This document shows, in pieces, positions 6,389 through 41,299 of a DNA stretch of 64,000 bases. The notes beneath the pieces are model-generated. The model had not been told where the DNA came from. It made no database searches and saw only the letters and a program-made list of their open reading frames with translations. Position 1 is the stretch's first letter. The number at the start of each line of letters is the position of its first letter. Source of the DNA: Amphiscolops sp. MND2022 (taxonomy: Eukaryota); assembly GCA_964187785.1 (NCBI GenBank), contig OZ076410.1, positions 25,978,001-26,042,000 of the forward strand, given 5' to 3'. A program made the position numbers and the translations under genes.

Positions 6389-6404
6389 CTCGCCGCTTTA
6401 AATG

Positions 6405-9330: not shown

Positions 9331-9479
9331 GTAAACAAAAATACAAAAACAACCGAACAGTGAAACAACTAAATGAAGAAGAAAACGACGACCGAGATGA
9401 AACATGAAGTGATTCGGAAGAAAGTATACCTCATATCAGAGAGATAAAGAAAATTGAAGAAAGGAACAAACACTACACA

Positions 9480-17188: not shown

Positions 17189-17334
17189 ATTGCTATCGCC
17201 TGATACCATATGAAAAGCTGTGGATGACACTTGGGTGGACAGCGATTCTTTGCCAACTAGGACAGCTGAGCTTAAACTCAATATGGGCTGTTGAACAGCG
17301 ACCTTTTTTAACTGGTGCTAAACCAAATTTTTCA

Positions 17335-18290
17335 CCAGATTTTTCTTCTTTTTCCGATTCTTCAATTTAATTTACTCTCCTCACGGATTTTGCAGTGTCC
17401 CGAGTTTTTAGTCGCTGCATCATTTCTTTGTGCCGCTGGGGAAACTTCTTTTTGCAGCACTTTCCAGGTGTCCAACCAATATACAAAATTTACAACGGTG
17501 ATTGGTGGCGATGCAGAAATTTACATGCTCCCTGATAAAATTCGCCTCCCAACTTCTATAGCATTCCCGGGGGTGAGTTTTCTCTATCGCAAATATTGGC
17601 TCGCTTTTCACCACTGCTTCTGCTGTTTCGGGCACTTGTGTTCCGTATGCCTTTTGCCTCTTCACCCCCTTCTCGAAGGCGATTGCGAATTCTAGGGCTT
17701 GGTCTGGCTCCTTAGGCTCTATACACAGTTTTTCTTTTAACTTCTTGTAATTCATATGAAGGATGAACATAGCCAAAACAAGGGTTGTCGTTTTATCCCC
17801 GAAGTCGCACAATGCCGCCAGTCCATTAAGTGTGTGGCAAAACTGTGGAAGTGATTCACCGGGCTGTTTGAGTCTTGAAAAAAATTTATGGCGATCTAAT
17901 GTCCTGTTTCTCTTTTTTCGGAAACATTCGTTGCAAAGGGCTATCAGCTTCTGTGCTCTTAGCTCCCACAGGGCCGTGGTTGGGTAATTATCCATGAAAT
18001 ACTTTGGTCCTGCGTCGCCCAAAACCAGATACATCACACCGATGACTTTTTTATTTGCAGATTCTTCTTCCAGATCCCCCAGCAACGCACGAACCATGAG
18101 ATTCTGCTGATCGGCATCTCTCGTCAACTCTGTGATTGAAGATCATATATTTAGACACTTGAAATAAAGGCTGCTTGAAATAAATCTAACCATATGTCCC
18201 AATCCATTGCTGGATTAGTGGTTGCATCGTCCCAAAATACAGGCAAACCCACGAGGTTGGAAGATGCAGAAGAACTGGGGAAGTTTCAGC
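17335..18290 (-). pseudogene. Family B gag, downstream copy (partial)
   Basis: ORF 17420-18127 (RNRTLDRHKFFSR; CYR..EANF..EH zinc-knuckle remnant) is colinear with 22274-22990. Confidence 0.8.
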
Positions 18291-21200: not shown

Positions 21201-23178
21201 TTTTGTTACAATTAAAATATCGTCTATAACACAAATACACTGTATATATATACCAATGTGAGGTCCATCAATTTCTGGAATTCCGTAGGCATTACATTGA
21301 GGCCGTAAAATTCACTTGTAAATCTACAGGTGCCTGTTGATTTCCCCCCGACAATTTGAAAATCACAATGTCTTTTGGTTAAATCATGCAACGGAATTTG
21401 GACATAAGCGTATGTCATATCATTCGACGAATACCAGGCCTCTCCTTTTTTCTGGTCTAATTTCTCAGCAATCATATCAATTAAGTTATCTAAGTTCGGC
21501 ATCTGGTATTTGTCCTTAGCTATTGATTGGTTTAATGCCCTCGCGTCTAGTGCGATTTTCACAGACTTATCCTTTTTGACAGTTATTACTGTTGGTTGAA
21601 AAAAACACATCGTCTTCAATTTTATCAAACTTCTCAATATGCCCCTCCTCTAACAGTTTTTCAATTTCTTTATCGACTTGCTCTTGTAATTGAATTGGTA
21701 TTCTGCGGCCTTTTTGCCGAGTCATTTTTGCCTCGCTTTTCACATTAATTTTATAATTTTAATTTCATAGTCTTTCACAAGGCCTTCTCTTCTGAACATT
21801 TTTGGAAATTCCTCTAATAATTGATGGACCTCGGGGCATTGCTTTTCTTCGGGACTTATCTCACAAAATATTTTGTCACTATTTACACTTTGCTGAATAA
21901 ACTCACACTCACTTCTTTCTATTGGTTAGTAATTTTGTTCCGGAGTGCAACTAGCCAATCCTGGCCTACGATCAATTGTCCAAAATTAGGTGCCACTAAA
22001 ACTCGAGCTTTCGAAACGGTAACTGCTGCTACTTCGAGTCGTACGAATTGGTACCCAAGTGAATTCAACGGCTATTTATTGCAATCCACATATCTTTCAT
22101 CATCAATCATGTCTCGGATTACAACTTTCTTTCGGAGACAATTTTATGTATATCCTTCTTCGTGAATATTGGAACTGGGGAACCAGTGTCGATGATTGCT
22201 CTAAAATGATTTCCGCACATCATCTCCTCAATATAAAATGGTTTGCAACCATTTCCGTCGACTCGTAGTGCCAGTTGCTCTTCATCACCAGATTCTTCTC
22301 CTTCTTCCGATTCTTCAATTTAATTTACTCTCCTCAGGGTTTTTGCAGTGTCCCGAGTGTTTAGCCGCTGCATCACTTCTTTGTGCCGCTGAGGAACTTT
22401 CTTATTGCAGCACTTTTCCAGGTGTCCAACTATTTTTTAAAATTTACAACGGAATTTGTTGGCGATGCAGAAATTTAAATGCTCCATGGTAAAATTCGCC
22501 TCCCCACATCTGTAGCATTCCCGGGGGTTAATTTTATCTATCGCATATATTGGCTCACTTTCCACTACTGCTTTTGCTGTTTCGGGCACTTGTGTTCCGT
22601 ATGCTTTTTGCCTCTTCACCACCTCCTCGAAGGCGATTGCGAATTCTAGGGCTTGGTCTGGCTTATTAGGCTTTGTACACAGGGCCGTGGTAGGGTATTT
22701 ATCCATGAACTTCTTCTGTGCTGCGTCGTCCAAAGCCAGATACATGACACTGATGACTTTTTAAATCGCAGAATCTTCTTCCAGATACCCCAGCAACGCG
22801 CGAACCCTGGGAATCTGCTGATCGGCATCTCTCGTCATTTCTGTGATTGAGATCGAAATTTTAGCCATCACGGATACTTGAAGTAAATCTAACCACTTGT
22901 CCCAATCCATTGCTGGATTAGTGGTTGCATCGCCCCAACATACTGGCAAACCCACGAGGTTGGAAGATGCAGAAGAACTGGGGAAGTTTCAGCTCGCAGC
23001 GCCAAGTTAACGTGGAGCTCACAGACTTTTGTAAAATATATTGAAGGTTGAAATGTGTATTGATGAATGTAATTGAATGATGTTTTGACTGTTTGTTTTT
23101 ATCAAAGGCTTTTGCAAAGTATGGCTTGAACAATGTCAGAGGTTTAGATCAAGTACCAGTAGTTATTTACAAACAGTA
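17335..23178 (-). mobile_element. Decayed Ty3/Gypsy family B: LTR(truncated)-gag-pol-LTR-gag(partial) tandem arrangement
   Basis: Homologous LTR segments at 23005-23178 and 18302-~18515 (AGTTAAC..GTTAACT termini) are each followed on the minus strand by PBS TGGCGCTGCGAGC (22992-23004, 18289-18301). There are two gag copies. Pol fragments include IIDTGSP (PR), IALDAR/YVQIPL (RT), RWVDRLLPFEFEVVHVAG (RH) and an IN core at about 19200-20030. Confidence 0.85.
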
Positions 23179-23228
23179 TTCATCATGTCATTGGACCACT
23201 ACTACTACGATTGATTTCCAACAAGGAC

Positions 23229-23530
23229 GGACAGCTAAGCTTAAGCTCAATATGGGCGCTTGAACAGCGATCTTTTTTGACTGGTGCTAAACCTAATTTT
23301 TCATTTAAGAGCTCTACGCTCTGCCACAAAGTTGGTAACAATTTCAATAGGAATAATTTTTATTGGAAGGTGTGAATACAAAAATATTTCTATTTTAGTT
23401 TTGCTGATTTCGATTTGTACCGCAATTTCCCATTTCACTCTCATTTCTTTGTTTGATATGCCTATGCTATTTCCACTACAAGTATGCACTTTTCCCACAT
23501 ATACATATATTGCTACAAATGATTTCTCGT
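23229..23530 (-). pseudogene. Possible older retroelement protease/RT-linker relic
   Basis: Translation GKVHTCSGNSIGI...IEIFLYSHLPIKIIPIE then CSSAHIELKLSCP loosely resembles retropepsin C-terminus and RT N-terminal linker. No DTG motif was seen. Confidence 0.25.
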
Positions 23531-24651
23531 GATATCACTCTAAAGCTTTATTCGACCTTGAAAAGAGTTGCTTTTATAACAAGCACTTTAGCTGAAAGAT
23601 ATATTTGAGCTGTCGAGCACATTTCATTCAAACAACAAATTCTTCTTGGAAGCACTTCAGAGTGATTTTTAGAGTGGAAAGTCCTTCAAACATCCTCTAA
23701 AACAATCCACTGATTGGAAATCAAGTACGGAAGTATGTATGAATCATCAACTCATTGCTATTGAAGTTTCTTTAGAAGCTTTGGGGAAATTATGGGTTTT
23801 ATCATGTAAGTACTATCAGTAAACAAAAAGTGATGAGACAAAAACATCTAAGTAAAAGATGTAAGTTTGTATTACTTTAAGAAGAACACTTAAAAAACCT
23901 TTGATAGCTTGAAATAGTAAAACCGCGCTCACGCTGCAATAGAACAACAATTACCTCAGTCATCAACAATTCGTATATACACAGTAGTATTTAACAAACC
24001 TTTTTTATGCTAGAAAAATTTATGACTGACTCGAGTAACAGGTACACAGCCTCTGTATATACGTATCACTTGAACAAATGTCCCCACTAAGGATTTTTTC
24101 GGAAAAAAAAATAAATAAATGCTAGTCAGAGATTATTTTTGACACTTTGTGAGGCTTGTGGAATTTTTTTCTGGGTTTATATCGTGTCTTTTATTAAATC
24201 AACAATTCCCGATAAAACGAAGTTTTGTCCTCAATTAACACAGTGAAAACTCCAAGACATGAGTGTTTGTTCCAGAAGTTAAAATGCACCTGTGATATCA
24301 AGCTTTTCATTTGAGATGCGCTAAAACAAAGGAAAACATCCATTTTTCATCCTTTTGTAGAAAGGCACACGTTTTCTTCGTTTAGCAAACACTAGCTGCA
24401 AAAAATATTGCTAAACATCTCACTCTGCAAAAAGTAATTGCTTTTTGCCCAAATTTCAAACCTCTCAACAAAAACATCAATTCACTTTTGTTAATATATG
24501 GACGTTGGGTGGAAGCACAATCTATTCCCTAGGGTGATGCGCATCGTTAATGTTATGGCAAGAATATAAACAAATAAAACTATCTCAGAGGCGATGGAAA
24601 TGAAAACGAAACCAAAATGACATTCTTTTAAAAATTATTTTTTGATGATAC

Positions 24652-26393
24652 TGTAAGAGCCACGTCCCGTGGTGTCTCTCAAATCACCAACGGACCGCGA
24701 GTCCTTTTTCAATAATTTTGTTTTCAAGCCGGATGGATTTTCCCTATTTTCCTGACTGCTAGGGGACATACTAGCCTCAGTGTCCCTGTTCCCAGAGGAA
24801 GACATTGAACTCACAATATTTTGAATCTCTGGTAGCACCTTTTCTGATATGGCAGTACTGATTGCTCTATTTATTTGGCTATGTACCATGGCCATCATGG
24901 AATCCATTTCTTGAGACAGTCTAAGATTAAATTCATTTGAGAAAGTTTCAAAAGACTGCCTAACATCGTTCTGCCTGTATTCACTATTCTCATGGGAGAA
25001 GTTTCTATATTCACCCCTTTGGTACAGATTAGCCTCACTGTCACTACGAACTGAAGATTGTTCAATTACTTCAGTTAATTCTCTCTCTATAGGATTTTCA
25101 CTCCCATTACCTAACATTATGTCCAAGTTGTCCATATCGGACATCATGTCCATTTCTCTAGACTTTCTAGTTTTCGCCTTTTGACGTCTCGTAGAAGGCA
25201 TGAGAGATTGTTGCAAGAGGAAAGAATTTAAATTGAACTCTTTAAGCTTGCAAATAATATTGTATTCGGTATTATAACAGCAAACTTGACTGTGACTATT
25301 CGTATGAAGATTATGTCCCCAGGACCACGGGTCCCGGTTTTTTTTAATCAACTAAACATGACATGCATAAAAGTGGTAGTCATCAGTCTAATTTTAGTAA
25401 CAGGTATTCTAAAAATAGACACAACATACAACGTGTCTTTACAAGTATATTATCATAATACTAAAAATAGCAACAACTATGACGTAATTGATTTACGTGC
25501 TTCTACATATATGAAGTAGTTACATTCAAAGATGTACATGCGCCCCTTCAGGCCATCCAATCAAGTTTCAGTAGCAACACTTCATGTAAAACAATACATG
25601 CTAAATCATATGAAATAAATACATGCAAAGATGGTGTGTGAACATTGAGCTGTCCTTTATGGCTTTTTAAGATACAAACAGCCCTTTTGACTTTCTATCC
25701 AGGAAGTTCTGGAAATTAAGAGAACACAAAATAAGGGGGGGAAGGACTAATGGTCCTTTTGTAAACAAGGTGACAGGTCTCCAATCAGAGCAAATATACC
25801 GCTTCTGAGATAGTACATTATCAATTTCAATATACGCACTTCTTTTATTCTACTTTGGACTCAGTGTCCACGCGTCCTTATTTAATACAAGAGTAGTGTC
25901 GTTGTGGTGGCGTGTGGCCCTTGAGTCCTTTAATTTAGAATACAGCACAGGAGCGAGCAAATGAACAATGCACTGTGATTGGTTGAGAAATTGGACGGAC
26001 AGCGCGTCTAGCGAGACAGGAAAGGAAACATTTGAACTCGTTTCCTTTACCTGTACGCCTTGGTGTCCAATTTCTCAGCCGTGGTATATATCTATCACTG
26101 TTATACATGTATTAATACACTATATTCAATTTTCAACTACATACTTTACATGGCTAATTCCGGATAATTATTCCAAAGCTTTCCAAACTTCATTAATATA
26201 AAAGCCCCGAATAAAATGATATACTTACATAAACATATGCGAAATCAATCACAATAAGATAAGTTTATAGTTTGTCTTCTTAGCCTTTTGGACTAATAGT
26301 CCATTCCTCAGTTCATTGGGAGGGTACCAGGGAGAGTATTGTAGTTGTAGCCGACTGAGTACCAATTGCCGTCGCAGGCGGCAGCCCGCGACA
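24652..26393 (-). repeat. 3' LTR (1742 bp) of the giant element; contains a copy of the gag 5' end (25201-24652)
   Basis: Near-identical to 38800-40540 (about 13 substitutions and 1 indel by eye). Confidence 0.97.
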
Positions 26394-27126
26394 CTCCCCC
26401 TGGCATAAGTAGAAAAGCGTTTGCGTTCATGCCATCTAGGAATGCTCTCCTCCTTGCCTGAGTCTCAGCTAAAGTCTCTCCTACAGTTACTGTCCTGTCC
26501 AGATATTCATTGACGGTCTCTTCTTGAATTTGTTTGACTGATTTCCCGCATACCACGCAGTCTGAGTAGTTGACTAAGGAGGGTGGCTCGGCAAGGACCA
26601 TCTCGTCGAAATGACTTGCCACCGCTTCCATTGACGTGTTCATGGAGGATGGTGAATCGCCACGAGGTTCACATGGGTATTGTAGTCCTCTGTCCTGTTC
26701 AGGTGGAGATAGCGGGGTGTCCACTTGCGGTACTAGATTTCGGCATATATTTATGGGGTGATTAGATTTGATCCTGTTGTCCCGACTTACAGGCCCATTT
26801 CCCCTTGCCAAGTTGAAGTACTTCTCCCCAAAGGTAGGAAATGGTGGCACATTTGGCCTGGGCGTCACAGGTCTTTTCTGCTTCTGACCGGCTGAGGTTG
26901 AAGGAATTGATATGGGCTCCGCAAGTTGTCTTTCAATGCATTTGGCCATGAGTCTAATCTCGTATGATTCGTCTTCGGACGACAAGTACAAGTCATCCAC
27001 AGACCACCCACAATTCGAGTCCATCGCTTCCTCTTCGTCGCTAGAGATGTATATGATTGCCGGTTCCCCTTCTGATCTTGCTGCTCCGATGAAGTCCATC
27101 GGGAAGGTCTCAGAGATGTCTGACAT
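26308..27126 (-). CDS. ORF3, 272-aa accessory protein of unknown function (acidic N-terminus with SIM-like IIYISSDEEE; CxxC), running through the PPT into U3
   Basis: ATG-initiated intact ORF whose last 86 nt lie inside the 3' LTR. No signal peptide or TM segment is visible, so it is not env-like. Confidence 0.7.
   Translation of the reverse strand: MSDISETFPMDFIGAARSEGEPAIIYISSDEEEAMDSNCGWSVDDLYLSSEDESYEIRLMAKCIERQLAEPISIPSTSAGQKQKRPVTPRPNVPPFPTFGEKYFNLARGNGPVSRDNRIKSNHPINICRNLVPQVDTPLSPPEQDRGLQYPCEPRGDSPSSMNTSMEAVASHFDEMVLAEPPSLVNYSDCVVCGKSVKQIQEETVNEYLDRTVTVGETLAETQARRRAFLDGMNANAFLLMPGGVSRAAACDGNWYSVGYNYNTLPGTLPMN
26394..26401 (-). other. Polypurine tract (AGGGGGAG) of the giant element
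   Basis: Immediately precedes the TG of the 3' LTR on the minus strand. Confidence 0.85.
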
Positions 27127-28349
27127 AGCTCGGATTTTGAAGATTTTCTTTGCAATTTTGATTGTTTTCCTGTTGGAATTTAGGTGTTGTTGAAATCAAC
27201 TGATTTTCAGCAGAGAAATTGAGATTATGGCGATCTCAGTTTCCTTCGACAGCGAGTCTCTTCGTCTCTCCTTTCCCGGGTTTTCACATTTCCCGGCAAG
27301 TAATTCTTCAATAACAGATTCCGCTTCTCTTGTTCTTTTATCATGCCGCCAAGACACTTTGTAATTGCCGACATCAGTTTTATTGACCATCATCAGCTAG
27401 GCTAATACTTCTAAGTTAGGAGAGTTACTTCAAGTGTTTATTAACACTCATCAGGTACTTGAGAGACTCAAGGAGGTAAAGTTATGGCAGTCAGCCACGC
27501 CGGCCTTCATCAATATGATCAACCAATAAGATTGCAGCAAAATTTCTCCCAAGTTAAAATGGCTTCTCAAGGTCGTAAATCCATATAAGGGATAATATAA
27601 AATGACCTTGAAAACGGAATAAAATGAAATAAAATAAAATAAATTAAAATAAAATCATGGAATAATTTTGCAAATAACAAAGTTTTCGAAATTAATGGAA
27701 AAGTAGATATCGCTGGCAGCCTTTATCCACATATCTCCATAAATTGTAAATACTTGTAAATTTGACACCAAATTGTATAGCCACGAACTCCAATCTTGAC
27801 ATCTTGTCACAACGCCAATTCTTCTTTCAATTCTTTATCATTCAGTTGTACTATTCACTTCTTGTATTATCCAGTATTTAATCACCAACGTATTTACTCA
27901 TCGTATTTTTAACCAATTATTTAGTCTTTGAGTCGTTTTTATTTATATTTTCCACTCGTCTTCAACACAGGACTCAGTGTCCATTCGTCCTCATCCCCGT
28001 GGGTTTCCTCAACTTCTCCCGGAAAATCGACATCCAGTCCCAATTTTGGACGTCCCCATCTAGCTGTCAGCTCGGCTCGACTTATCTACACAAATATCAC
28101 TTACCAACTCCCCCGCATTGGAATACTAACAGGTCAGTTGTTCTTCATACATCTTCATTAGCTAGGCTAGATTTTTGAACTAAATTGAGGCTTGATCAGG
28201 GCTCTCTTTTCGTTCAAGTACTTCCTGTCCACGTAACACGAGTGTTCACAAGTGTTCAATTTAATCTACTTCCGGAAGATTTTTTAACGCGGTTAATGGA
28301 TTTTAACTCAGGAAGCTTGCCGCTTGAATTCATTTCTTTCTATTTAGAC

Positions 28350-31300
28350 ATGTCGTCTGAAGAACAAATCGCCGACACAATTCTTCCAACATCAGAGAAT
28401 CCCGAGGTTGCCGAAGAGACCAATACAGCACCAAAGGAGCCAGTAGTGATAACTCGTCCTGACTCCAACCAGTCATCTAGTAGTGGAAACACTGAAGAGA
28501 GCATAACCACATATGCGGAGAAAACTTTACGGACACTGGCTAGTGATAATCCTTCTCTGGATATTTCATTTCTCCCGGCACCGACACTACCTGAAGATGG
28601 AACAGCAGGGCCCATAAAGGTTTCCCAGTCGATAGGTTTTGAACGTCTAGGAAAGGAAGCCTTCTCACTCGACGGCATGCAAGAAACTGGTAGCTACATT
28701 GAGCCACGGGACAAGAGCAAGGAGTACTTTGCCACTGATACTAGTGAGGCTGGCGAGCTGCTTGACGAGATGGGTACTGAAGGAACGCGTAAACGGCCTA
28801 CCTCAAGCGTTACCTGTTCTGAATTACCATCTGCAACCGAAGGTGCTGCCGGACAAGATACAGATGGTACTTCGTCTGGAGTCGCAAAGTCTGGGTTCCG
28901 AGAGGTGAAATTACCAGAACGATTTTCGGCTAATGGACAGGCTGTTTTAAGGAAACACTTCTCCTCATCTGCCCCAATTGAATTGCCTAAAGGTCACAGT
29001 ACTGTTTCATTCAGTGAGCCGCAAATACATGCCGTCCTCAAAACCATATCAGATGAAACTGTGAAATCATCCATCCATGCCATGCGTTCCCTTGTCTTAC
29101 ATGCTGTTTATGGGGCAGGAAAGCAGACTCCTGGACAGTTCCGGAAATCAATGGTTCGAGGCGTGGTCCCTACACGAGGCGATCCCAATAGCTCAGGTGC
29201 TGATACAGAAAGTGAGGGAGGAATGACAGACGATTATACGAGCGGAGCCCTCACCTCTGATGATGAGCTCGTTGTTGCAGCCAGGCCACGCTGTGGGACG
29301 CCACTACCAAGAGAACGTTCTGGCTACCCAAATACTTCCGATGAAGAGATGGACAGGACTCCTAGTACCAGCCATACCACAGTCCCTAGTCCAGGCTACA
29401 GTGAGGGAGACTACCAACCTCTAAGTGCCATGCGGGTAGAAGACCGACCACGACGACCTGGAGGCAGTCCGCCGCGCAAGAAGCGGAGGTACGTGGGCAG
29501 ACCTGGCAAAGTCATGAAGGCTGCCTATTTCAAAGGTATTCAGTGGACCAAGGTCTTCGTAACTGGACCACTAGATCCTGTGCATAACAAGCACAAATTC
29601 TACTGCCAAATTTGCAAGGCGAACGTGTCAATCTATTCCAAAGGGGCCAGAGAAATCGTGAGACACTACCAGAGTGAGACCCATCTGCGCAAAGACCAAC
29701 GATGGCGCTACGAACACCTTAGTAGGGTGGACAAAATCAGTGGACAGACTGTCCATGCAGTTAGAGGGAGGGACGGACATCTCCTTTCCGCTCTAGAACT
29801 AGAGAAGGAGAAGCCACGTTTCGAATCGGCTCCATTAGTGGATATTGGCCCTAGATTTCCCTTTTACGACGACTATATGGCCAATGCTGGGGGAATTGCA
29901 TGCCCCGAAGATTTGAGACTGGGTACTCAACTTTCTTTGATTGGACGAGCGGTCCCACATTTCGGCAATCTGACTGTACTGGAGAGACTGTGGGCCGAGG
30001 TTGGGAATTTCACCAATCATCAAGACACTTTCCGACAGCTTGATTGGAGTTCGCTCACGCTCACTGTAAGTCTTTTCATTCTTTCTACAAGTTAGGACCA
30101 CTAAGCGTATGAATTTTGAAAGTGTACCTTAATCCACTAAGTCTGTTGAGCCATAGTTTGCCCTTTCCAATTTTTGGTGATTTCGTTTTGTTCTAGGCCA
30201 TGTTTCACCACATCTTTTTGCGCGGAATGGAGGATATAGCCCAGTCCGTGAATTCCTGCGGCTCATACTCTCTGGAGTTTGAACCACACGGAAATCAGTG
30301 CATCCTTTCAATCAGATACTGGAAGGCGAGTACCCTGGCCAAGGTTCAATTGTGCAAGTACCCACTGCCTTCGGACCCGGGCCCCAGTCAGTTACTGATG
30401 GTTTCACGCCTACTGTCCTTTCTTTCCACGCTGCCACAAATTGCCTGTGTATCAGGTTGTACTTCCGAGGTGTTGCGATCAGTTGAGCGTTCCGGGCTGT
30501 TCAAGAAGGGCATCGAGTACCCATTCCGCTTCAATGCCTTTTCTCTTCACAAGCTAATGCATCAGCTTGAAGGGAGTGTGTTCGGACGAATTGACTTCTT
30601 CACACAGCTGAAGTACCTTCTGGCCTTCCTCAACAACAGTCTAGATGAGCCTTGGATGTCTTCTTGCCCAGAACTGACCAAGGTTTGAATTAATATTGCT
30701 GGACTCGTATGTTTGCACATTGTTTGTGCGTCTCACAGCACAGAGTATTCCTTTTAGGCTATAATCAATTTCGACTTGAAGATACGGTGCATTCCGACTA
30801 TTTGTACTGAATTGATCAGCAACTGGCAGCCTCTTCTTGACCACCTGACCAGACTTGCCCCTGGCTACGAAATGCGAGGAGTTAAAAATAAGGTTTCGAT
30901 TTTTCCTTCTACCTGTTTCGGTTTTCTTCTCATGACGTACGACCCCAGGATCACTATCCATTAATTGCTTGAGTTCCCTTTTAGCCGCAGAGTCTTGAGT
31001 GGACTATCATCACCGATGACTTCTTCTTAGTCAAGTTGGAATTCTTTGGAAAGATCATCTATGATTGTGAGTATTGCTTTTGTTTCAGAGGGAATTTACT
31101 CGTGATCGTTCACGTAGTTTCTTTGCAGGGACTCACTAGGTAAGGCTTTGTACTCAGAGGTCTATTTCCCTGTTTAGATATTCGTTGCTTTGAGAGAAGT
31201 CTAGTTGGACACAGGGACGCTGGTTTCTTCACCTTTGGGCAGTTGAATAATTTTGCCCGTAAGCTATGCTATCGCTCTTTGCTCCCCAAGCACCATCCTA

Positions 31301-32337
31301 GCGAAACCGATTGGACTCAACTTCCCATTCTGCGAACTGCTGAATTGCGACAACTCTCCACCAGGGACTTTCTTCACCGCTTGAAATTGAAAGAAGATCT
31401 AGACGGAGCTGCTAATTCTAAGGTCAAGCGGGACTACAGTGACAAGGAAGGGCCAATACCTAATTTCCCCAAACTCGTTGAGGAATGCAAGGAGAAGTTC
31501 GCTGGAAAAGCAAGGGGTTATGTGGTCTACCTTCTTGAGAAGCTGCTAGCGCATCACAGCATCAATGCTGAGATTGTGAAGGGAATGGCCAGTTTTGACC
31601 CACACATCCTCTTGAGTCTGCCTCGAGACCAGGCGACCTATTGTTACCGGGCACTGTATAACAGCTTCAATCTCCGTGGATGGTTGGAAGGATTCTCTGA
31701 AGACGACTGTCGGGACGAGTACCTCGAATTTATCGACTTATTTCGCGAAAAGTATGCTACCCTGGAAGATTCGCCTGATGGTTTTACTGATATGGTGGAA
31801 TTGTTGTCTAATATGACTGAGCTCCGAAGTCGACCTCATTTGTATCGTTTATTTCGATTGTGTTGCTTGTGCTTGACAGAGGACACCCCTTTGCTTCCGC
31901 CTATCCGTTTCCAGGATGTTGACGCACAGAGTCCTCGGTGTAGATTGGGTGACGTGTTGCTTCCTGCTCAGTCTTTCCTAGCACGAGCCCCTGACGCCAT
32001 CTCGGTTTGCACTAACGATGTCTCTTTGTGTAAATATCGTGAGGTTGAGCAGCAATTCAATTCTGGCAATGTGGCTGGTGACCCTTGGGTCCACGTCGAC
32101 ACTTTTGGGCGAGCTAATTTTTATAAGACTCTCCATGCCGCTTACGAATCTGTGGTCCGAGTGCCGAGGTCAGCTTCCTCGAGTAAGACTGGTTCGCGTT
32201 CTAATTCTCCTGCTGCAGTTGGTCGGCGTAAATCTTCTCCTGGGAAAGCAAAAAAGAAAGTTTCTTTTGATGGCTCCAATGCTGTGAAGGGTACCACAGA
32301 CGGCCAAGAAGCTGGACAGAAGGCCACTAAATCTTAA
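28350..32337 (+). CDS. Antisense spliced cargo gene, ~1192 aa: low-complexity N-terminus, NLS, BED-type zinc finger, degenerate hAT-transposase-like body
   Basis: Predicted exons are 28350-30065, 30197-30682, 30758-30892, 30985-31066 and 31178-32337. The four GT-AG introns (131, 75, 92, 111 bp; phases 0,0,0,1) join into one stop-free frame of 3579 nt. PPRKKRR lies at about 29469-29489 and C-x2-C-x16-H-x5-H at 29604-29684. A probable 5'UTR intron is 28133-28347. Confidence 0.8.
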
Positions 32338-32561
32338 ATGTACATATGTACATTTGTTCTTTAGTCTGTTATTTTGTATTTAACATGAACTAACTGATCT
32401 TTCTTTTATTTGTTGAAGCATTTTGTGGATTGCTTGTTGACCCTTGGGTCTCTTTTATTGTTTTTTATTGTATTTATTTGAAAAGTTCAGAGTCAGAGTA
32501 GTCCCAGTAAAAATATTAATTTAGTCCAAGAGACTTATGGGACTTTAATTTACATGTCTGA

Positions 32562-35500
32562 CTAGTATCTGTATTCATCAGTGAAGTTGGGGGTGGGGTT
32601 AGGTCGAAGATTATATTTCCCTCCTCTAGGGCTAGAATTTTTTTCATTTTTTCCTTTTTCCGATATTCCGGGCACGGTAATATCTACGCCCCTTTCTGAA
32701 GCAATTTCCGCATTCTCTAAGTCATTTGTGACGTCATTTTGATTTTCCGTCCCACGTGGCGTTTCGTCTAGCGGGGACGACGCGTTACGGTTGCTGGCCG
32801 ATCTCGGCCGTACTTCATTCTCGTTGACGTCATTGTCATTCATTCTCTCGCTGCTGCGCTCACTTTCGTTTACGCTGCTGCTTTCATTCTCGGTGACGTA
32901 ATAGTCGACTTCTCCGTTCGCGGCGTCCTGTGGCAGACGCGTGGCCGTATGTGGCCAATCATTTATCTTCGGCTCGAATAGCTCGTACTCAAAGTCCGCT
33001 TCCCATGAAATGGTATACAGATCATCTTGCGGTATTACGATTTCTTCATCGGGCTGTAATTTCTCTTCTTCGTATTTGTCCTCTAATGGAGCATTTGGGA
33101 CAAATTTTTTGAGCCTTATCCGGTGCAAGATTTGCGTTTTATTCGTATTTAAACGACGCACTATATAATTGTTATTTGGTAGAGTTTTTTGAACGACAAA
33201 AGGACCAATCCATCGGAAGTCCCTAAATGGTATCTTAGAGCCTTGACTATCCGCTTTCGGTTGAAGAACAAAACAGTAGTCTTTCTCTTGTAGCGGAGCT
33301 GCTTTGGCCTTGCGGTCGTAGTACTCCTTGTACTTTAAATACGACTGCATAATATTCCTTTTGGTTTGATCAATGAGGATTTGTGTCCTCTGCTGCAATT
33401 CTTCCGCGAATTCAGTCGTCGGTAGGAAATTTTTGTTAGGATTATTCCCTAATTTGTGATCCAGGACGTTATAGGGAATTCGGCCATGAAAGACTTTGCT
33501 AGGCTCACAACCAATACTAGCGTGATAAGTAGTGTTATAGTTAAGCACAGCTAATGGTAAATATTTGTGCCATTGACGACGGTATTCCCCTGAGGCCATC
33601 TTTAGGTTGGTTTTTAAAGAGGCGTGTGTCCTTTCAAATTTACCAATAGTTTGCGGATGTTTAGTAGTGGCACACTTCAATGTGATCCCCAGTATTGCAG
33701 TAATTTCTTCTAAAATTTTTGATGTAAATGCGGATCCCTTGTCCGTGATGAGTGTTGTTGGCAAATACGAATGTTTCGTCATGATGTCAATTATCACCTT
33801 GGCTACGTTTGCGGCTGTTGCCTCAATTAGCGGGTAGGCGAATAAATATCTTGAAAATACGTCTATTGCCGTCATCACCGTTTGGTATCCGCCGCTGGTT
33901 GGTAAATTTGGCAGTAAATCGATTTGCATGGCATCTTCTGGGCCTAGGTCCCATTCAGGTAAATTCAGTAATTCTGGGGTGATTACCGTGTTGGGGACCC
34001 TTTTGTCCTTGGCACATGTTTCGCAGCCTTCTACCCATTTTTTGACGTGTTTAGCAATTCCGGGGTAGTAGTATTTTTGGCGAATTTCCTGCAGCATTTT
34101 AGAAATGCCCGGGTGTCTATGTGCCGTGCCATGTATTGCTTGCAATAATTCTTTGAGCAAATGCTTTGGCAATAAGATTTGATGATATTTGACCTGTCCG
34201 GTTTCATCGTAGTACTGCCGCGTCACTATCTCGTCTTTGAGGACTATTCGATCTATGTTGTTCAAGTAATACTTGTACCGAATATCCTGTTGAAGGATTT
34301 CTTCAGAGTATTCTTCTTTTTGAAGTTTCGCCCTCAATTGGAGGAGAATCGGGTCTCTGGATTGTTCAAGCAGTATCTGATTTGTTCTTCTTAATTTCTG
34401 CGTGAAATTGGTAATCTCTTCGACGGTATTTTCTGATATAGCGTCAATTTGGATTACTGTCTCAGGGACTATGAGGCCCTTTTTGGATTGTTGTTTCCGT
34501 TTCCAAATCTGTTCTTCTGTTTCGTTGTCCTCCTCGGTGAAGAAAATTTGCTCTTCTTCTGATACGCCGGCTGATTGGACATTGACCTCGATCGGTCTAG
34601 TTTCTACGTCCTCTCGTATTTTCAGGACCAACTTTTCAGTAGGGTCCATTTCCATACGGGACAAGTAGTCTGCCGCTGTATTGTTTTTGCCTGGAATGTG
34701 AGCTATAATGAAGTTGAATTGAATGACAAAATCACAAGCATTCCAGAGAGGCGGTGGAATTATCTTTGTCTGGAAGAACCTCGTGACCGATTTGTTATCT
34801 GTGAGGATAATCACGGGTTGAGGTGTTCCCCAGAAGATATGTCCAAACTCCTTAAATGCATAATATATAGCTAGGAATTCCTTTGCATATATCGACATTT
34901 TGAGCTGAGAAGGCGTGAAAGTTTTGGATCCATATGCAATCGGCGCATAGGACTTTTTAACAGAAGTGTATTTTTGATTTGGGTCGTCTTCGGTCAATAT
35001 GGCGTAACCGGCTGCTGTAAAACTTGCGTCAGTCATGAGGACCAGTTGTTTGTTCGGCAGAGGTTGTTTCAACGCCAATTGACTACATCGGTCTAAATCA
35101 CGGTTGATCGCAATAAATTGTTCAACCAGCTCTTGCGTGACTAGTACCTTTTCATCCTTTTTGAGCAATTGGAAGAAAGGAACTAGTTTTTCGGATAGCC
35201 TTGGAATATAATTCCTGTAGTAATTGAGGAAACCAATATAGCGTTGTAAGGCCTTCTTGGACTTTGGGAATTTCGTCTTTTCCAAGAAGATAGCGATTCT
35301 TTCTTTTTGGGGCTTTACGCCTTCAGGTGTAATGGTTCTCCCAAGAAAGTCAATTTCAGTAGCGCCGAAATGGCACTTGTGCATGGAAAATTTCAATCCT
35401 GCTTCTCTGATACATTGGAACGTTGCTCTTAAGTTGACGATAAGCTGGTTAGCGTCTGTCGCCGCGACACCGATATCGTCCACATATTGAGCACATTGGT

Positions 35501-37631
35501 CTGCTTTTATAACACGATCCAGGTATTCCCTCATGAAACTGGAGAAGGCCGACAGGGCTCTACTGAGTCCTTGGGCCAATCTTCTATATGCAAATGTCCT
35601 GCTGGCGAAGTTGAAAGCTAGCATTTCAATCGATTTCTGGTCTGCCATAGGAAGGCAATGATAAGCTTGGGAACAGTCGAGTTTGCAAAAGAGCTTTTTG
35701 CCTGCCATATGTTGCGCCGCATCCGTCAAGGTGCTGACTGGGTGGTTGTTATTGACGTAGTCATCTGAAATCAGATTATTGATCTTCCGCAAATCCACCA
35801 ACAGTCTCAGTTTTCCATTGGGTTTTTTCTGCGCAAATATTGGACCGGCGTACTTCGAGAATGGTAATGTTGTTATAATCCCATATTTATGGAGTAATGC
35901 CAGTTCGACCAATATGTCCTCTTTGAGGTTGACCGGAGTAGGTAGGCTCTGACTGTAAGCAGGCGACTCGTCCTTTGGGGTCAGTTTGACCGTAAATTCC
36001 TCATTGACGCCAATGTCAAATTTATGGCGTGCAAAGATGTCATGGAATTCCACTAATAGAGTTTCTATTTGTCTGATTTCATGTTGTTGTAACATTGAGT
36101 CCTTCCAATCAAAGTTGCCGAGGAATTTTCGACGAGATTCCGCATCGTCGTGCGGGTTGAGTTGTTCTAAACTTTGCAGGTTTCGTAATTCTTTGAGAAT
36201 TCTTTGTTGTATTGGGGTATGGGTCGTTTCGTCCCCTGGGTTTTCAGGCGTCGGGAACCAATATTGTTCGTATTGGTCATTATTTCTGTTAGCTTTAAGA
36301 AGGCTACTAATATAATAAATAGCGTCGTCTTCATTTTCATTCAGTAAGTGCCAGGTGGACACTGGGTCTATTGGCCTGACGTGTTTCATCTGTTCAGGGG
36401 TCATCACTGAAAAGTTTGCAATGTGCATCCCTTTCTTTATTTTATAGGGTTGATCAGTGAAATTGTTGACGTGTATTCTCGTAGCCCCTTCATGTAGTGT
36501 GAATATGGCGGTACAGAAGGTTATGTCGCCTTCCTCGTGCAGAAGATCGCTGGGTTGCAATATGCCCGTAACTGCATTTTCTGCGTAAATTTGTGATTGA
36601 ATGGGTATGACCACATGGTCATTGGGCGGAATTGTGACATCCTCAGGATTGAGGATGGGTTCCAAAACATTTGAGTATTTATGGTCAGCCGTCTTGAGTT
36701 GCATCGAGAAGTAGGGAAAGTTGAGTATACCTTGGCGCATGTCCAGGACAGTGTGGTTCCTTTGAAGGAATATTAGTCCAATTATGGGGCTTGACAGTTT
36801 TTCCATTACAATGAAAATTTCGTGAAATTCTATGTCGCCCACTTCGAATTTTAGTTCGACTGTGCTCTTTGGGGTTTCTAAGTCTCCATTTGCGACCATT
36901 ATTTGGAAGGATGGGGCAGGACCTTCTTTTACAATGGATTGAGGGGCCAACAGGCGTATTTTCCTGAGGTCTGCCTCCGGGATTGCACTGGAGTGGGCTC
37001 CAGTGTCTATCAGGCCATCTAGAGTTAATTCCCCAAAGTCCATTGGGAAATAGAGCATTCGTCGTTTGAATTTAAGTCCAAGGTTTGTTGAAAGGGGAAC
37101 GTATGGTAATTCTCCTTCTTTGGTCACTAGGAGGTGTAAGAAGGCTGTCTCGTCTAAAAGACTATTAGGAGCCTTGTGGTCCTCCTGTGTGTGTATGGCG
37201 TCTCCTTCTTGTATAGTTGCCTCAAAGTTCGGCTGCCAAAGATCAATGAGGGCCCGAGACAGTGTGTTGTCTTCGATGTCTGGGTCGTCCTCGTCGTCAG
37301 TTGGAGGGTAATCTTCGTTTCGAAATTGTAAATTTGTTTTGTCATATAGTTCGTCGTCCCAGTACGGGTCTTTGCCATACTCGGGGTCATAGTACTGAGG
37401 GTTATAATCTTCGACAGTTTGTAAGGGTCTAAATTGAGTTTCAGAGTCGTTGTAATTGCTATTCCGTCGATATAGGTATGGGTGATCACTGTGAATGATA
37501 TATTGAGTTTCTTTGCGGGCGTCGGCCAACTGCTGCTGCCAGACAGTCGATGGCATCCCTGTGGTGTCGTTTTGAGTTTGTTTATATGTAATGTTTGCAG
37601 GGTCAGATATGACGTACTGTCGTACTGACAT
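32562..37631 (-). CDS. Pol polyprotein (PR, dUTPase-like insert, RT, RNase H, integrase), 1689 aa from the first Met
   Basis: Motifs: LIDTGA (protease), LLVDLR, KLDCSQAY and YVDD (RT), TDAS (RH), H-x3-H..CETC, IDLL/TDKG/FER core and WIGPF (GPY/F module). The PR-RT-RH-IN order is diagnostic of Ty3/Gypsy. Confidence 0.97.
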   Translation of the reverse strand: MSVRQYVISDPANITYKQTQNDTTGMPSTVWQQQLADARKETQYIIHSDHPYLYRRNSNYNDSETQFRPLQTVEDYNPQYYDPEYGKDPYWDDELYDKTNLQFRNEDYPPTDDEDDPDIEDNTLSRALIDLWQPNFEATIQEGDAIHTQEDHKAPNSLLDETAFLHLLVTKEGELPYVPLSTNLGLKFKRRMLYFPMDFGELTLDGLIDTGAHSSAIPEADLRKIRLLAPQSIVKEGPAPSFQIMVANGDLETPKSTVELKFEVGDIEFHEIFIVMEKLSSPIIGLIFLQRNHTVLDMRQGILNFPYFSMQLKTADHKYSNVLEPILNPEDVTIPPNDHVVIPIQSQIYAENAVTGILQPSDLLHEEGDITFCTAIFTLHEGATRIHVNNFTDQPYKIKKGMHIANFSVMTPEQMKHVRPIDPVSTWHLLNENEDDAIYYISSLLKANRNNDQYEQYWFPTPENPGDETTHTPIQQRILKELRNLQSLEQLNPHDDAESRRKFLGNFDWKDSMLQQHEIRQIETLLVEFHDIFARHKFDIGVNEEFTVKLTPKDESPAYSQSLPTPVNLKEDILVELALLHKYGIITTLPFSKYAGPIFAQKKPNGKLRLLVDLRKINNLISDDYVNNNHPVSTLTDAAQHMAGKKLFCKLDCSQAYHCLPMADQKSIEMLAFNFASRTFAYRRLAQGLSRALSAFSSFMREYLDRVIKADQCAQYVDDIGVAATDANQLIVNLRATFQCIREAGLKFSMHKCHFGATEIDFLGRTITPEGVKPQKERIAIFLEKTKFPKSKKALQRYIGFLNYYRNYIPRLSEKLVPFFQLLKKDEKVLVTQELVEQFIAINRDLDRCSQLALKQPLPNKQLVLMTDASFTAAGYAILTEDDPNQKYTSVKKSYAPIAYGSKTFTPSQLKMSIYAKEFLAIYYAFKEFGHIFWGTPQPVIILTDNKSVTRFFQTKIIPPPLWNACDFVIQFNFIIAHIPGKNNTAADYLSRMEMDPTEKLVLKIREDVETRPIEVNVQSAGVSEEEQIFFTEEDNETEEQIWKRKQQSKKGLIVPETVIQIDAISENTVEEITNFTQKLRRTNQILLEQSRDPILLQLRAKLQKEEYSEEILQQDIRYKYYLNNIDRIVLKDEIVTRQYYDETGQVKYHQILLPKHLLKELLQAIHGTAHRHPGISKMLQEIRQKYYYPGIAKHVKKWVEGCETCAKDKRVPNTVITPELLNLPEWDLGPEDAMQIDLLPNLPTSGGYQTVMTAIDVFSRYLFAYPLIEATAANVAKVIIDIMTKHSYLPTTLITDKGSAFTSKILEEITAILGITLKCATTKHPQTIGKFERTHASLKTNLKMASGEYRRQWHKYLPLAVLNYNTTYHASIGCEPSKVFHGRIPYNVLDHKLGNNPNKNFLPTTEFAEELQQRTQILIDQTKRNIMQSYLKYKEYYDRKAKAAPLQEKDYCFVLQPKADSQGSKIPFRDFRWIGPFVVQKTLPNNNYIVRRLNTNKTQILHRIRLKKFVPNAPLEDKYEEEKLQPDEEIVIPQDDLYTISWEADFEYELFEPKINDWPHTATRLPQDAANGEVDYYVTENESSSVNESERSSERMNDNDVNENEVRPRSASNRNASSPLDETPRGTENQNDVTNDLENAEIASERGVDITVPGISEKGKNEKNSSPRGGKYNLRPNPTPNFTDEYRY

Positions 37632-37660
37632 CTTGTTACATATTTGGAGTCGTGGCGAAA

Positions 37661-39349
37661 TTAGTTTTTTGAGTCCGTTTTACGTAAGTTTGATTGGCTT
37701 GAAGATGCAGTTTCAGGGTTAGTTGACTTTTTGGACGATTTTTCATCGCCAGAGGTGTCATCAGCCTTATCCTCAGGACGTGTCCTTTTGGGTCGTAAAT
37801 GTGCTCCAGCCCCTTTCCAGCATCTTTCAACAGGGTGATTTTTCTTTCCGCAAGTAGGGCATTCTGGGTATGTAGGACGTTGGGGCTTTTTGCCATTTTT
37901 GTCCTCCAGTTCTTTCTTCTTCTTCAATTTAGGGCAGCTCTTATAGAAGTGGCCTGTGGCTTTACAATAAGAGCATTGTGCGTCCTTTTTAGTATTTATG
38001 CCATTAGAGAGCAAATTGTTGTTACTGGTGGACGCAGAGGCCATTGTAGCGATTGGCAAATCGTCTGACTCTTCTAATGCGTTGAGTTCAAGCTCTCTTT
38101 CAAGATGAGCGACGACTTCTTCATATGTCCCGTTCTCCAGGCGGGCCATATTGACAGATCGTTTCAATTTTGGAGGCAGTTTTGCGTATAATAGGCTGTC
38201 AATCATGCTTTTTGCATTTTCGCCGAAAGCTTTTTCTGCCCCCTGGTTCAGTTCTTCCAAGAAATCCGGCAATTTCATGGTATTCGGATCGAAAGTCAGC
38301 CGATGCCATTTGTGTTTTGCCGTTGCTTGGGATTCCGGTTTGACGTATTTCCTCCGGAATATGATTAGCACATCCTCGAGTGTTTGGCGGTTAATTGAGT
38401 TTATGTTCCTGAAGGTCTGCAGGGCCCCTTTTCTGAGCAATGAGTGAAAATGGTTTATTTTCATTTGCTCTGTCATGGCCGGTTGCATTTTGATCATTGC
38501 GTGGAACAAATCTTCAAAGAGTTCGAATTTCTCACTCTTTCCGTCAAACGTCATTGGTGTCGTTTGGACAGGTCGGATAGTCATCGTTTGGGGTTTATTT
38601 TGCAAATTGACTAGTACATCAGCCAATCTATTGAGCGGGTCCTGAGGCTGCTCTGTGACCTCTGGTTCTGGCGCTGGCAGAGTGGTGTCCAAAGAGACAT
38701 TGTGGTTAGACTGCTGTCTCTCTAGGTTCAGGATTGAGTGGATTCGTCCAGTGAGAAATTCAGGTATAGGCTGTTGGGCTTCGTTAGCTCCTGTCACCAT
38801 GTAAGAGCCACGTCCCGTGGTGTCTCTCAAATCACCAACGGACCGCGAGTCCTTTTTCAATAAGTTTGTTTTCAAGCCGGATGGATTTTCCCTATTTTCC
38901 TGACTGCTAGGGGACATACTAGCCTCAGTGTCCCTGTTCCCAGAGGAAGACATTGAACTCACAATATTTTGAATCTCTGGTAGCACCTTTTCTGATATGG
39001 CAGTACTGATTGCTCTATTTATTTGGCTATGTACCATGGCCATCATGGAATCCATTTCTTGAGACAGTTCAAGATTAAATTCATTTGAGAAAGTTTCAAA
39101 AGACTGCCTAACATCGTTCTGCCTGTATTCACTATTCTCATGGGAGAAGTTTCTATATTCATCCCTTTGGTACAGATTAGCCTCACTGTCACTACGAACT
39201 GAAGATTGTTCAATTACTTCAGTTAATTCTCTCTCTATAGGATTTTCACTCCCATTACCTAACATTATGTCCAAGTTGTCCATATCGGACATCATGTCCA
39301 TTTCTCTAGACTTTCTAGTTTTCGCCTTTTGACGTCTCGTAGAAGGCAT
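37661..39349 (-). CDS. Gag, 562 aa from MPSTRRQK, with two CCHC zinc knuckles; the first ~183 codons lie in the 5' LTR
   Basis: CSYCKATGHFYKSC and CPTCGKKNHPVERC. The ORF-track start at 39499 is a TTG; the first ATG is at 39349. Confidence 0.9.
   Translation of the reverse strand: MPSTRRQKAKTRKSREMDMMSDMDNLDIMLGNGSENPIERELTEVIEQSSVRSDSEANLYQRDEYRNFSHENSEYRQNDVRQSFETFSNEFNLELSQEMDSMMAMVHSQINRAISTAISEKVLPEIQNIVSSMSSSGNRDTEASMSPSSQENRENPSGLKTNLLKKDSRSVGDLRDTTGRGSYMVTGANEAQQPIPEFLTGRIHSILNLERQQSNHNVSLDTTLPAPEPEVTEQPQDPLNRLADVLVNLQNKPQTMTIRPVQTTPMTFDGKSEKFELFEDLFHAMIKMQPAMTEQMKINHFHSLLRKGALQTFRNINSINRQTLEDVLIIFRRKYVKPESQATAKHKWHRLTFDPNTMKLPDFLEELNQGAEKAFGENAKSMIDSLLYAKLPPKLKRSVNMARLENGTYEEVVAHLERELELNALEESDDLPIATMASASTSNNNLLSNGINTKKDAQCSYCKATGHFYKSCPKLKKKKELEDKNGKKPQRPTYPECPTCGKKNHPVERCWKGAGAHLRPKRTRPEDKADDTSGDEKSSKKSTNPETASSSQSNLRKTDSKN
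37664..37670 (-). promoter_or_regulatory. -1 ribosomal frameshift slippery site A_AAA_AAC
   Basis: Lies directly before the gag TAA. The -1 frame reads KKLISPRLQICNK-MSVRQY, in frame with pol. Confidence 0.8.
38788..38799 (-). other. Primer-binding site TGGTGACAGGAG (tRNA-Leu-like), embedded in the gag ORF
   Basis: Abuts the LTR terminal CA. It matches 11/12 to the complement of the vertebrate tRNA-Leu(CAG) 3' end as I recall it; host tRNA not verified. Confidence 0.75.
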
Positions 39350-40540
39350 GAGAGATTGTTGCAAGAGGAAAGAATTTAAATTGAAATCTTTAAGCTTGCA
39401 AATAATATTGTATTCGGTATTATAACAGCGAACTTGACTGTGACTATTCGTATGAAGATTATGTCCCCAGGACCACGGGTCCCGGTTATTTATAATCAAC
39501 TAAACATGACATGCATAAAAGTGGTAGTCATCAGTCTAATTTTAGTAACAGGTATTCTAAAAATAGACACAACATACAACGTGTCTTTACAAGTATATTA
39601 TCATAATACTAAAAATAGCAACAACTATGACGTAATTGATTTACGTGCTTCTACATATATGAAGTAGTTACATTCAAAGATGTACATGCGCCCCTTCAGG
39701 CCATCCAATCAAGTTTCAGTAGCAACACTTCATGTAAAACAATACATGCTAAATCATATGAAATAAATACATGCAAAGATGGTGTGTGAACATTGAGCTG
39801 TCCTTTATGGCTTTTTAAGATACAAACAGCCCTTTTGACTTTCTATCCAGGAAGTTCTGGAAATTAAGAGAACACAAAAGAAGGGGGGAAGGACTAATGG
39901 TCCTTTTGTGAACAAGGTGACAGGTCTCCAATCAGAGCAAATATACCGCTTCTGAGATAGTACATTATCAATTTCAATATACGAACTTCTTTTATTCTAC
40001 TTTGGACTCAGTGTCCACGCGTCCTTATTTAATACAAGAGTAGCGTCGTTGTGGTGGCGTGTGGCCCTTGAGTCCTTTAATTTAGAATACAGCACAGGAG
40101 CGAGCAAATGAACAATGCACTGTGATTGGTTGAGAAATTGGACGGACAGCGCGTCTAGCGAGACAGGAAAGGAAACATTTGAACTCGTTTCCTTTACCTG
40201 TACGCCTTGGTGTCCAATTTCTCAGCCGTGGTATATATCTATCACTGTTATACATGTATTAATACACTATATTCAATTTTCAACTACATACTTTACATGG
40301 CTAATTCCGGATAATTATTCCAAAGCTTTCCAAACTTCATTAATATAAAAGCCCCGAATAAAATGATATACTTACATAAACATATGCGAAATCAATCACA
40401 ATAAGATAAGTTTATAGTTTGTCTTCTTAGACTTTTGGACTAATAGTCCATTCCTCAGTTCATTGGGAGGGTACCAGGGAGAGTATTGTAGTTGTAGCCG
40501 ACTGAGTACCAATTGCCGTCGCAGGCGGCAGCCCGCGACA
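38800..40540 (-). repeat. 5' LTR (1741 bp) of the giant element
   Basis: Direct repeat of 24652-26393, bounded by the PBS and the TSD. Confidence 0.97.
39991..40129 (-). promoter_or_regulatory. Candidate LTR core promoter/polyA region: CCAAT (40125-40129), TATTAAATAA (40025-40034), AATAAA (39991-39996)
   Basis: Order and spacing on the minus strand match a typical U3-R arrangement. Motif-only evidence. Confidence 0.35.
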
Positions 40541-41299
40541 GATACCAATTTCTGTTTTCTGCCATTAAAATCCCGAGTCAGACTTGATTCGACTCCGGTT
40601 TATGGTGTAAACACTCCTAATAATTCTTCAGTTCAGTTAGTCCTATGATGAAGACAGACCTTGGCTGCCATCTTCTTAGTAGGCCCATGTCAAATGAGGA
40701 TTTCAGTTTTTTGGATTGCATCTTGCAAAAAGTTGCTTGAAATCATTATGTTCTGATTTTTGTGTTAGATAAGTTTCCTTGAAAGTTCTATAGCACGTTT
40801 GTGTCTTCTTCGAAATGGCTGAAGTGGCTGAATATGTGGATGCTGAAGATCAGCTACAAGTTGACGAAGAAAGAACGCTCGTTCGGTTGCAACGGTCGTT
40901 ACTTGATTCTTTTTTGATTCGCAGCCGGATAATGTAAAGGAAAGTAAAGTTAATTTTTTCAGATGTCTTTAAAAAGTATAATTTATACTTTAGTATAATT
41001 ATACAAATTTATATTAGTATAATTTATACTAGTATAAAAGTATAAATACAAGTCAAACAATGCCACGTTTCAATAGTGAACTACAGTGATCTGAATACCA
41101 ATCGCTGTGATGAGGAGCAGCAAAAAACTACTTTGTTTGTATATTAGTTCCAATAAGGTTTTGTCTCAATTCAAGTGTTTTCGGTTATTATTCGCCCATG
41201 TTTTGGAAAATTGGAGTGAAAAAATACTGCCTGTGTTTTCGATCGACGCTCCTTGAAGGAATGAGCACACCATTACAGTGATTAGTTTGTTCTTCGGCT

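Follow-up and report, generated by a model that had tools for sequence, protein, structure and literature searches.

A 64,000-nucleotide stretch of the genome of Amphiscolops sp. MND2022 (GCA_964187785.1, contig OZ076410.1, positions 25,978,001 to 26,042,000 of the forward strand; hereafter the window, whose positions serve as coordinates) contains a full-length long terminal repeat (LTR) retrotransposon, and on the strand opposite to its gag and pol genes this element carries a gene with five introns. We propose, with a probability of about 0.82, that this is an old, selected antisense gene of five exons whose introns survive copying, which is exchanged as a unit, and whose product is a DNA-binding accessory protein. 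According to this model, the plus-strand gene would be transcribed and spliced from integrated DNA, and its introns would escape removal, since the template RNA for reverse transcription contains them as CT..AC. The gene would be an ancient selected part of the whole lineage rather than a passenger, and it would shift between gag-pol backbones as a unit through template switching in conserved flanks. The protein, predicted to combine a helical domain with a zinc finger and an RNase H-like core, would target the DNA or chromatin of the element itself, aiding expression or integration, and could be a catalytically dead hAT-like transposase.

The coding part of the gene consists of plus-strand exons of 1716, 486, 135, 82, and 1160 nt (3579 nt; 1,192 codons plus the stop), joined across introns in phases 0, 0, 0, and 1. 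Exon 1 (28350..30065, 572 codons) encodes a low-complexity N terminus, a basic PPRKKRR stretch, and a C2H2-type zinc finger near 29604-29684; exon 2 (30197..30682, 162 codons) encodes a predicted RNase H-like core; exons 3 (30758..30892, 45 codons) and 4 (30985..31066, 82 nt) follow; and exon 5, which runs through the stop (31178..32337), encodes a confidently predicted all-helical domain and a basic tail. A preliminary description of this DNA had placed four GT-AG introns in the gene, and all were recovered at exactly those positions: intron 1 at 30066..30196 (131 nt, phase 0, donor GTAAGT), intron 2 at 30683..30757 (75 nt, phase 0), intron 3 at 30893..30984 (92 nt, phase 0), and intron 4 at 31067..31177 (111 nt, phase 1, donor GTGAGT). 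Its claim that these introns join the pieces into one frame with consistent phases also held, every exon being stop-free solely in the frame that the phases demand. Its count of four open reading frame (ORF) fragments plus an 82-bp exon stood only in part, as the small exon is present but a cutoff of 100 amino acids leaves three plus-strand fragments, with the 135-nt and 82-nt exons falling below it. The further probable intron that it had noted, which begins with GT and ends with AG 2 nt before the ATG at 28350, is a 5' untranslated region (5'-UTR) intron of 215 nt (28133..28347, plus strand) with conserved internal motifs. Introns contain 39-42% T and 36-42% GC, and exons contain 22-34% T and 40-50% GC.

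We took 70 further loci, with 20 kb each, from the 1.07-Gb assembly of this eukaryote. They spanned identity classes (20 of 39 DNA matches, 30 of 129 exon 5 matches, and 20 of 108 matches to a distant homologue), giving 71 loci with the window. Copies were located via the antisense gene itself, so that all counts cover gene-bearing copies only. Junctions were positioned exon by exon from protein alignments, and splice ends were read afterwards. In the first 51 loci, the window among them, introns 1 to 4 had GT-AG ends in 47, 48, 38, and 49 cases, other ends in 1, 2, 5, and 1, and unmapped junctions in 3, 1, 0, and 1, respectively, and intron 3 was missing in 8. The 20 distant loci showed GT-AG ends in 18, 18, 19, and 18 cases, with one other end and six unmapped junctions. 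Altogether, 255 of 265 mapped junction pairs were GT-AG at the same codon positions, vs only 0 to 5 of 265 when both ends were moved by 1 to 12 nt. The donor of intron 3 is GC in loci L129 and L105, and the intron of L129 is GC-AG. The lengths of the three inner exons were unchanged in 41 of 47 fully mapped copies, and intron lengths vary freely.

In one related family, intron 3 is precisely missing: exon 3 continues directly into exon 4 with zero residues gained or lost. Since this family is nested among intron-bearing families (tree support, 96/93 and 99/99), the absence represents a loss, from which it follows that a spliced RNA existed at some time. Among proteins called blind to introns in outside assemblies, 105 of the 107 that reached the end of exon 1 continued with Val, and Phe-Gln ended six of seven read-throughs. 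The introns display the features of the U2 type, namely, GT..AG ends, a pyrimidine-rich acceptor, conserved codon positions, a frame restored by removal, and an exact natural loss. As far as genomic sequence can tell, they are likely spliced from a plus-strand transcript.

Substitution rates were computed for 11 of 12 copies. The ratio of nonsynonymous to synonymous substitution rates (dN/dS; ∼734 codons) was 0.08 relative to the nearest subfamily and 0.18 to 0.22 relative to two close copies. In eight distant copies, the proportion of synonymous differences was 0.78 to 0.85 and that of nonsynonymous differences was 0.15 to 0.29, with intron identity of 53 to 60%. By these measures, the antisense protein is under strong purifying selection, with synonymous sites saturated. 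The antisense RNA could nevertheless be the working product, acting as double-stranded RNA or in copy-number control with the protein secondary, given that antisense RNAs regulate Ty1 and have been proposed to do so for plant elements. Such a role is very improbable here: selection acts on amino acids while synonymous sites are saturated, the product has invariant Cys, Cys, and His residues and a confident fold, and the transcript would not overlap the gag-pol coding sequence, as 185 to 260 nt lie between the stops.

The preliminary description had proposed to check whether independent insertions keep the introns, and they do. An LTR pair was found within 20 kb in 60 of the 71 loci, and 47 loci had TG..CA ends and a perfect 5-bp duplication, 44 of the duplications being distinct. 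Of these 47 insertions, all four coding introns are present in 37 and all but intron 3 in 7, and the remaining 3 have a single unmapped junction each; in no case was an intron other than intron 3 missing. The tested exon frames were all open in 38 insertions but not in 6, and 3 were outside the test. LTR identity was 99 to 100% in most of these insertions, indicating recent copying. Exon-based searches of the genome, which were blind to introns, returned no open frame longer than 483 codons. An alternative is that the gene is a fragment of a DNA transposon or of the host recently nested at the DNA level, so that its introns never passed through RNA. The transposase-like features of the protein and the homologue inside a DNA transposon with terminal inverted repeats (TIRs; see below) would fit such an event. 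However, the 47 separate insertions carry the gene at one place, in families reaching down to ∼68% in pol and in one case 57%, no convincing TIR surrounds the gene, and the copies in the DNA transposon cluster with alleles borne by LTR elements and are accompanied by a pol-tail remnant. We therefore give recent nesting almost no credence; the gene may have originated in an ancient DNA-level capture.

The gene had been described as antisense within a retroelement, and indeed it lies in an LTR element with gag-pol on the opposite strand. Read on the gag-pol strand, its introns are CT..AC, which the spliceosome does not use. Over 6.8 kb, gag and pol contain no intron, whereas five interrupt the 4.2 kb of the antisense gene. 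The arrangement is the mirror image of retrotransposition indicator cassettes, whose intron, oriented with the element, disappears upon retrotransposition (available part of PMC12786077). From these sequence features, the antisense orientation is very probably the cause of intron survival through reverse transcription, in agreement with the earlier proposal that orientation lets the introns travel via RNA. The introns might instead persist mainly because of selection (for expression, export, or internal motifs) or because unspliced RNA is packaged, with orientation being incidental or serving separate regulation. Three points speak for this view: motifs of the 5'-UTR intron are conserved in 54 of 71 loci, only one intron loss is seen across deep divergence, and sense introns persist in Ogre and EVADE (available part of PMC12786077). 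The last point means that antisense orientation is sufficient, not necessary, for intron survival. Against selection as the main cause stand the lack of introns in gag and pol on the packaged strand, compared with five in the antisense gene, and the unconserved interiors of the coding-region introns (53 to 60% identity). We consider this alternative unlikely as the principal explanation; orientation and selection on introns can operate together.

Several motifs flank the coding exons. Within the 5'-UTR intron, the segment 28170-28347 holds motifs kept from family to family; one of them, CTTCCGGAAG, occurs in 54 of 71 loci and resembles sites for ETS factors. With a search pattern for the anchor motif that was defined after inspecting the sequences, a donor-like site and an acceptor were found in 54 of the 54 loci that have the motif (of 71). 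Upstream, a 14-bp motif (27970..27983) recurs in both LTRs (25857 and 40004). Of 13 loci checked, 7 have it in both LTRs and in the spacer that separates ORF3 (the third sense frame of the element) from the antisense gene. The spacer copy may be a candidate internal promoter element, that is, an internal copy of the LTR promoter. Right behind the stop, a TGTACAT-rich stretch (32338-32360) is kept in most LTR-borne families, AATAAA being mostly lacking on the plus strand, and this stretch is possibly a noncanonical 3'-end signal.

Comparison of copies revealed mosaic elements. Loci L081, L141, and L159 are 85 to 99% identical to the window outside the gene but 47 to 70% across it, with identity switching near 27,800 (28,350 in L159) and near 32,500. 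In L081, pol has a synonymous divergence of 0.047 from the window, yet the synonymous sites of the antisense gene are saturated, and L063, L089, and L117 combine identical reverse transcriptase (RT)-RNase H sequences with three separate antisense-gene alleles. The gene behaves as an exchangeable cassette (27750-32550): the window-type backbone occurs with at least four alleles and a second LTR type with three. Old alleles have been transferred whole between gag-pol backbones. The likely route of exchange is template switching in the conserved flanks. The diversity of alleles could reflect selection for variety, or the divergent interior could merely block crossovers; both are possible.

Five distant loci had no gag-pol. 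Two of them fall in a 35-kb element; of its four copies read at both ends, three have perfect TIRs and 2-bp duplications and one is truncated. Its Tnp2-like transposase matched DUF1258 above the cutoff and Transposase_21 and DUF4218 below it; with its TIRs, 2-bp duplication, and Tnp2-type transposase, this is a CACTA/EnSpm-like element. Its copies (G000:C2:29298731-29334034, with L171, L172, L151, L152, and L173; C2:56.41-56.44 Mb; C1:35.41-35.45 Mb; and C3:8.30-8.32 Mb) are 98 to 99.8% identical and also contain weak SET-like frames and ∼88-bp tandem repeats. An open homologue of the antisense gene lies within the 35-kb element; it retains all four introns and has a short pol-tail remnant beside it, and its alleles cluster with those of the LTR-borne loci L137 and L155 (98/100, midpoint root). 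The grouping and the remnant make capture from an LTR element likely. Intron 4 measures 491 to 493 nt in the TIR-bounded copies, and LTR-borne introns measure 62 to 156 nt (n = 248). Introns of 1,012 to 1,024 nt (L135/L136) and 453 nt (L153/L154) were found in related loci with unmapped ends that lack gag-pol and have large blocks in common with the 35-kb element. These lengths hint, from two families only, that a length limit on the packaged RNA keeps LTR-borne introns short.

For the protein, exons were folded and searched singly. No exon had a Pfam match above the cutoff. In exon 1, Cys, Cys, and His are invariant, with a C2H2 match below the cutoff in 31 of 31 cases; Atlas rows for a BED-type finger were below 0.9 and serve only as leads. 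The exon 2 model had the Hermes transposase among its tied best fold matches, integrases, PIWI, and kinases scoring alike, and Hermes was the only one of the VIA top ten matches aligned from residue 1. Exon 5 folds confidently as an all-helical domain (predicted local distance difference test score, 89.7), and a fold search with this model gave no clear match. Atlas listed the hAT dimerization domain PF05699 at 0.91, with 148 shared features and low recognition, again as a lead only. The predicted order of zinc finger, RNase H-like core, helical region, and dimerization-like end would match that of hAT transposases and their derivatives (Hermes; CGGBP1, ZBED type); the antisense gene has no significant sequence match to them and no TIRs. 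Three comparisons were negative: hmmscan found no PF05699 match in 76 family members, profiles of exons 2 and 5 failed to pick hAT frames in 30 PF05699 loci, and hhalign against the genome's own hAT frames was negative. A search for TIRs and 8-bp duplications around the gene turned up, across the cassette, nothing but short A/T-rich pairs that look like chance matches, and PF14291 and PF18658 had no match in this genome, but none in the controls either. We judge hAT ancestry to be an even call.

An acidic residue on strand 1 (E27) is present in 97% of 30 sequences, and after strand 4 there is no acid but a conserved Ser-Gly. This Ser-Gly and the lack of an E-R-S-F-S-like motif suggest that no DDE triad is present, with the register against Hermes inferred from the aligned ranges. 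If the protein derives from a hAT transposase, the enzyme is probably dead, because no acid follows strand 4. We read the product as a predicted nuclear DNA-binding helper of the element, with about a one-in-two chance of a regulatory role. In a more elaborate scenario, the lineage would have domesticated an intron-bearing DNA transposase in antisense, so that its introns are kept; the dead enzyme would serve as a sequence-specific antisilencing or targeting factor, its ancient alleles would be traded between backbones as host and element compete in an arms race, and the gene would have been stolen by a giant CACTA-like transposon. As a whole, we find this scenario doubtful. Relatives numbered 440 at an E value of 0.001 among cluster representatives, those inspected being ENA records. 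PDB sequence searches gave no match, a weak search found no full-length annotated protein of ∼700 to 2,000 amino acids, and metagenome scans and a viral scan returned no related loci.

The preliminary description had named HBZ of human T-cell leukemia virus type 1 (HTLV-1) as a precedent. HBZ and APH-2 of HTLV-2 are likewise antisense genes of reverse-transcribing elements with nuclear regulatory products, and HBZ is spliced and encodes a small basic leucine zipper protein. HBZ and APH-2 are, however, small proteins made from the 3'-LTR promoter of a retrovirus, whereas here a large multiexon gene sits in an element with no recognizable env. Closer precedents are the antisense genes of retrotransposons. 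Zhao et al. (2011) reportedly described brtn, an antisense gene of Boty elements. It is an additional gene of Boty in Botrytis and Sclerotinia (available parts of PMC8365987 and PMC4227169) and thus likewise an extra antisense gene in a nonplant Ty3/gypsy element; according to the same partial sources, Boty has a chromodomain, whereas none was found here and our element has a dUTPase. Grande, RIRE2, Retand, PvRetro13, and Boty have antisense ORFs located between pol and the 3' LTR, whose origin and function are called unknown, and gene23 of maize Grande is driven by a promoter of its own and yields a product located in the nucleus (PMC7264820; available part of PMC11963269). Grande gene23 and the RIRE2 and Retand TRP28 ORFs have the same position and orientation, are present in most copies, and are conserved; our gene shares with Grande, Retand, and brtn its position, antisense orientation, coding conservation, and, among copies located through the gene itself, presence in most copies. 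The plant ORFs are of the TRP28/Transposase_28 type, a Pfam match that our gene does not have. It has 1,192 codons and five introns, while the word "intron" is absent from the text of the Retand survey, and neither cassette exchange nor capture by a DNA transposon is described in the available parts of the main accounts of the plant ORFs. Spliced antisense transcripts were recommended as a search target in a 2020 review, which also called the origin and role of such accessory genes open (PMC7264820).

LTR elements of bdelloid rotifers also have a dUTPase between protease and RT and extra ORF types common to element classes, but these are env, GDSL, and DEDDy, and the words "intron" and "opposite" are absent from the available part of the account (PMC5408684). 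As far as that account goes, rotifer ORFs are shared among retroelements, whereas here the sharing is with a DNA transposon. The antisilencing protein VANC of VANDAL transposons is likewise a fast-diverging, transposon-carried accessory protein, but the analogy is functional only: in the available parts of PMC11728184 and PMC13547354, VANDALs are plant Mutator-like DNA transposons. Neither this family nor any LTR element with an antisense gene of several introns turned up in our literature search; a description may exist in subscription papers, Repbase, or supplements.

The orientation argument is likely right but not new in kind. New here are the size of the gene, its five conserved introns, the exact loss, the cassette exchange, the capture by a DNA transposon, and a possible transposase origin. 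With its many copies, the family offers a natural experiment on the fate of introns during RNA-mediated copying: five antisense introns persist across deep divergence, one of them was lost exactly in one family, the sense genes have none, and longer introns occur only where gag-pol is missing. The origin and role of the gene can be tested, given the abundance of young copies, the variety of alleles on near-identical backbones, and a protein that can be folded; standard repeat annotation would miss the gene.

The element itself spans 15,889 bp (24652..40540, minus strand), with TG..CA ends and a 5-bp target-site duplication, GATAC (24647..24651, repeated at 40541-40545). The 3' LTR (24652..26393, minus strand; 1,742 bp) is 99.2% identical to the 5' LTR (38800..40540, minus strand). 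A polypurine tract adjoins the 3' LTR (26394..26401, minus strand), and a primer-binding-site-like stretch beginning with TGG immediately follows the 5' LTR (38782..38799, minus strand). A search for tRNA genes within the window found none. The pol gene (32562..37679, minus strand; 1,705 open codons) encodes, in Pfam order, protease, dUTPase, RT, RNase H, and integrase, with gypsy-type matches. The paired TG..CA LTRs with their short duplication, the pol domain order, and the priming sites beside the LTRs are those of Ty3/gypsy elements; the class was assigned from the pol Pfam matches, our RT tree containing only elements of this genome and using a quick method. The dUTPase (pol residues 345-427) lies between protease and RT; it is rare in retrotransposons and known from rotifers and basidiomycetes (available part of PMC5408684).

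A gag-like frame with a zinc knuckle (37661..39499, minus strand) has a subthreshold DUF1759 match and overlaps pol in the -1 frame at an A-rich run that resembles a -1 slippery site. Its first Met (39349) lies in the 5' LTR, so that the first ∼180 codons sit within the LTR (38800-39349); the primer-binding site therefore falls inside the gag frame, and the 3' LTR has a second copy of that frame (24652-25201). ORF3 (26308..27126, minus strand), of ∼272 codons from its first Met, ends inside the 3' LTR and is conserved among relatives. It had no Pfam match, contains a Cys-x2-Cys pair, is 30 to 99% conserved across families, and travels with the LTR type. The antisense gene lies on the plus strand between pol and ORF3. 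A Pfam-level reading of the element found no chromodomain and no recognizable env. As for a sense poly(A) signal after pol, the T-rich gap held 0 to 5 hexamers per copy and none in some families, and we do not claim one. Elsewhere, the window holds two older, decayed LTR-like elements (8255-13043 and 17260-23303) with repeat pairs 87 to 94% identical and remnants of integrase and RT, 65-bp tandem units at 6389-6850, and long, near-perfect spacerless palindromes at 42654-42753, 46035-46244, and 54743-54888.
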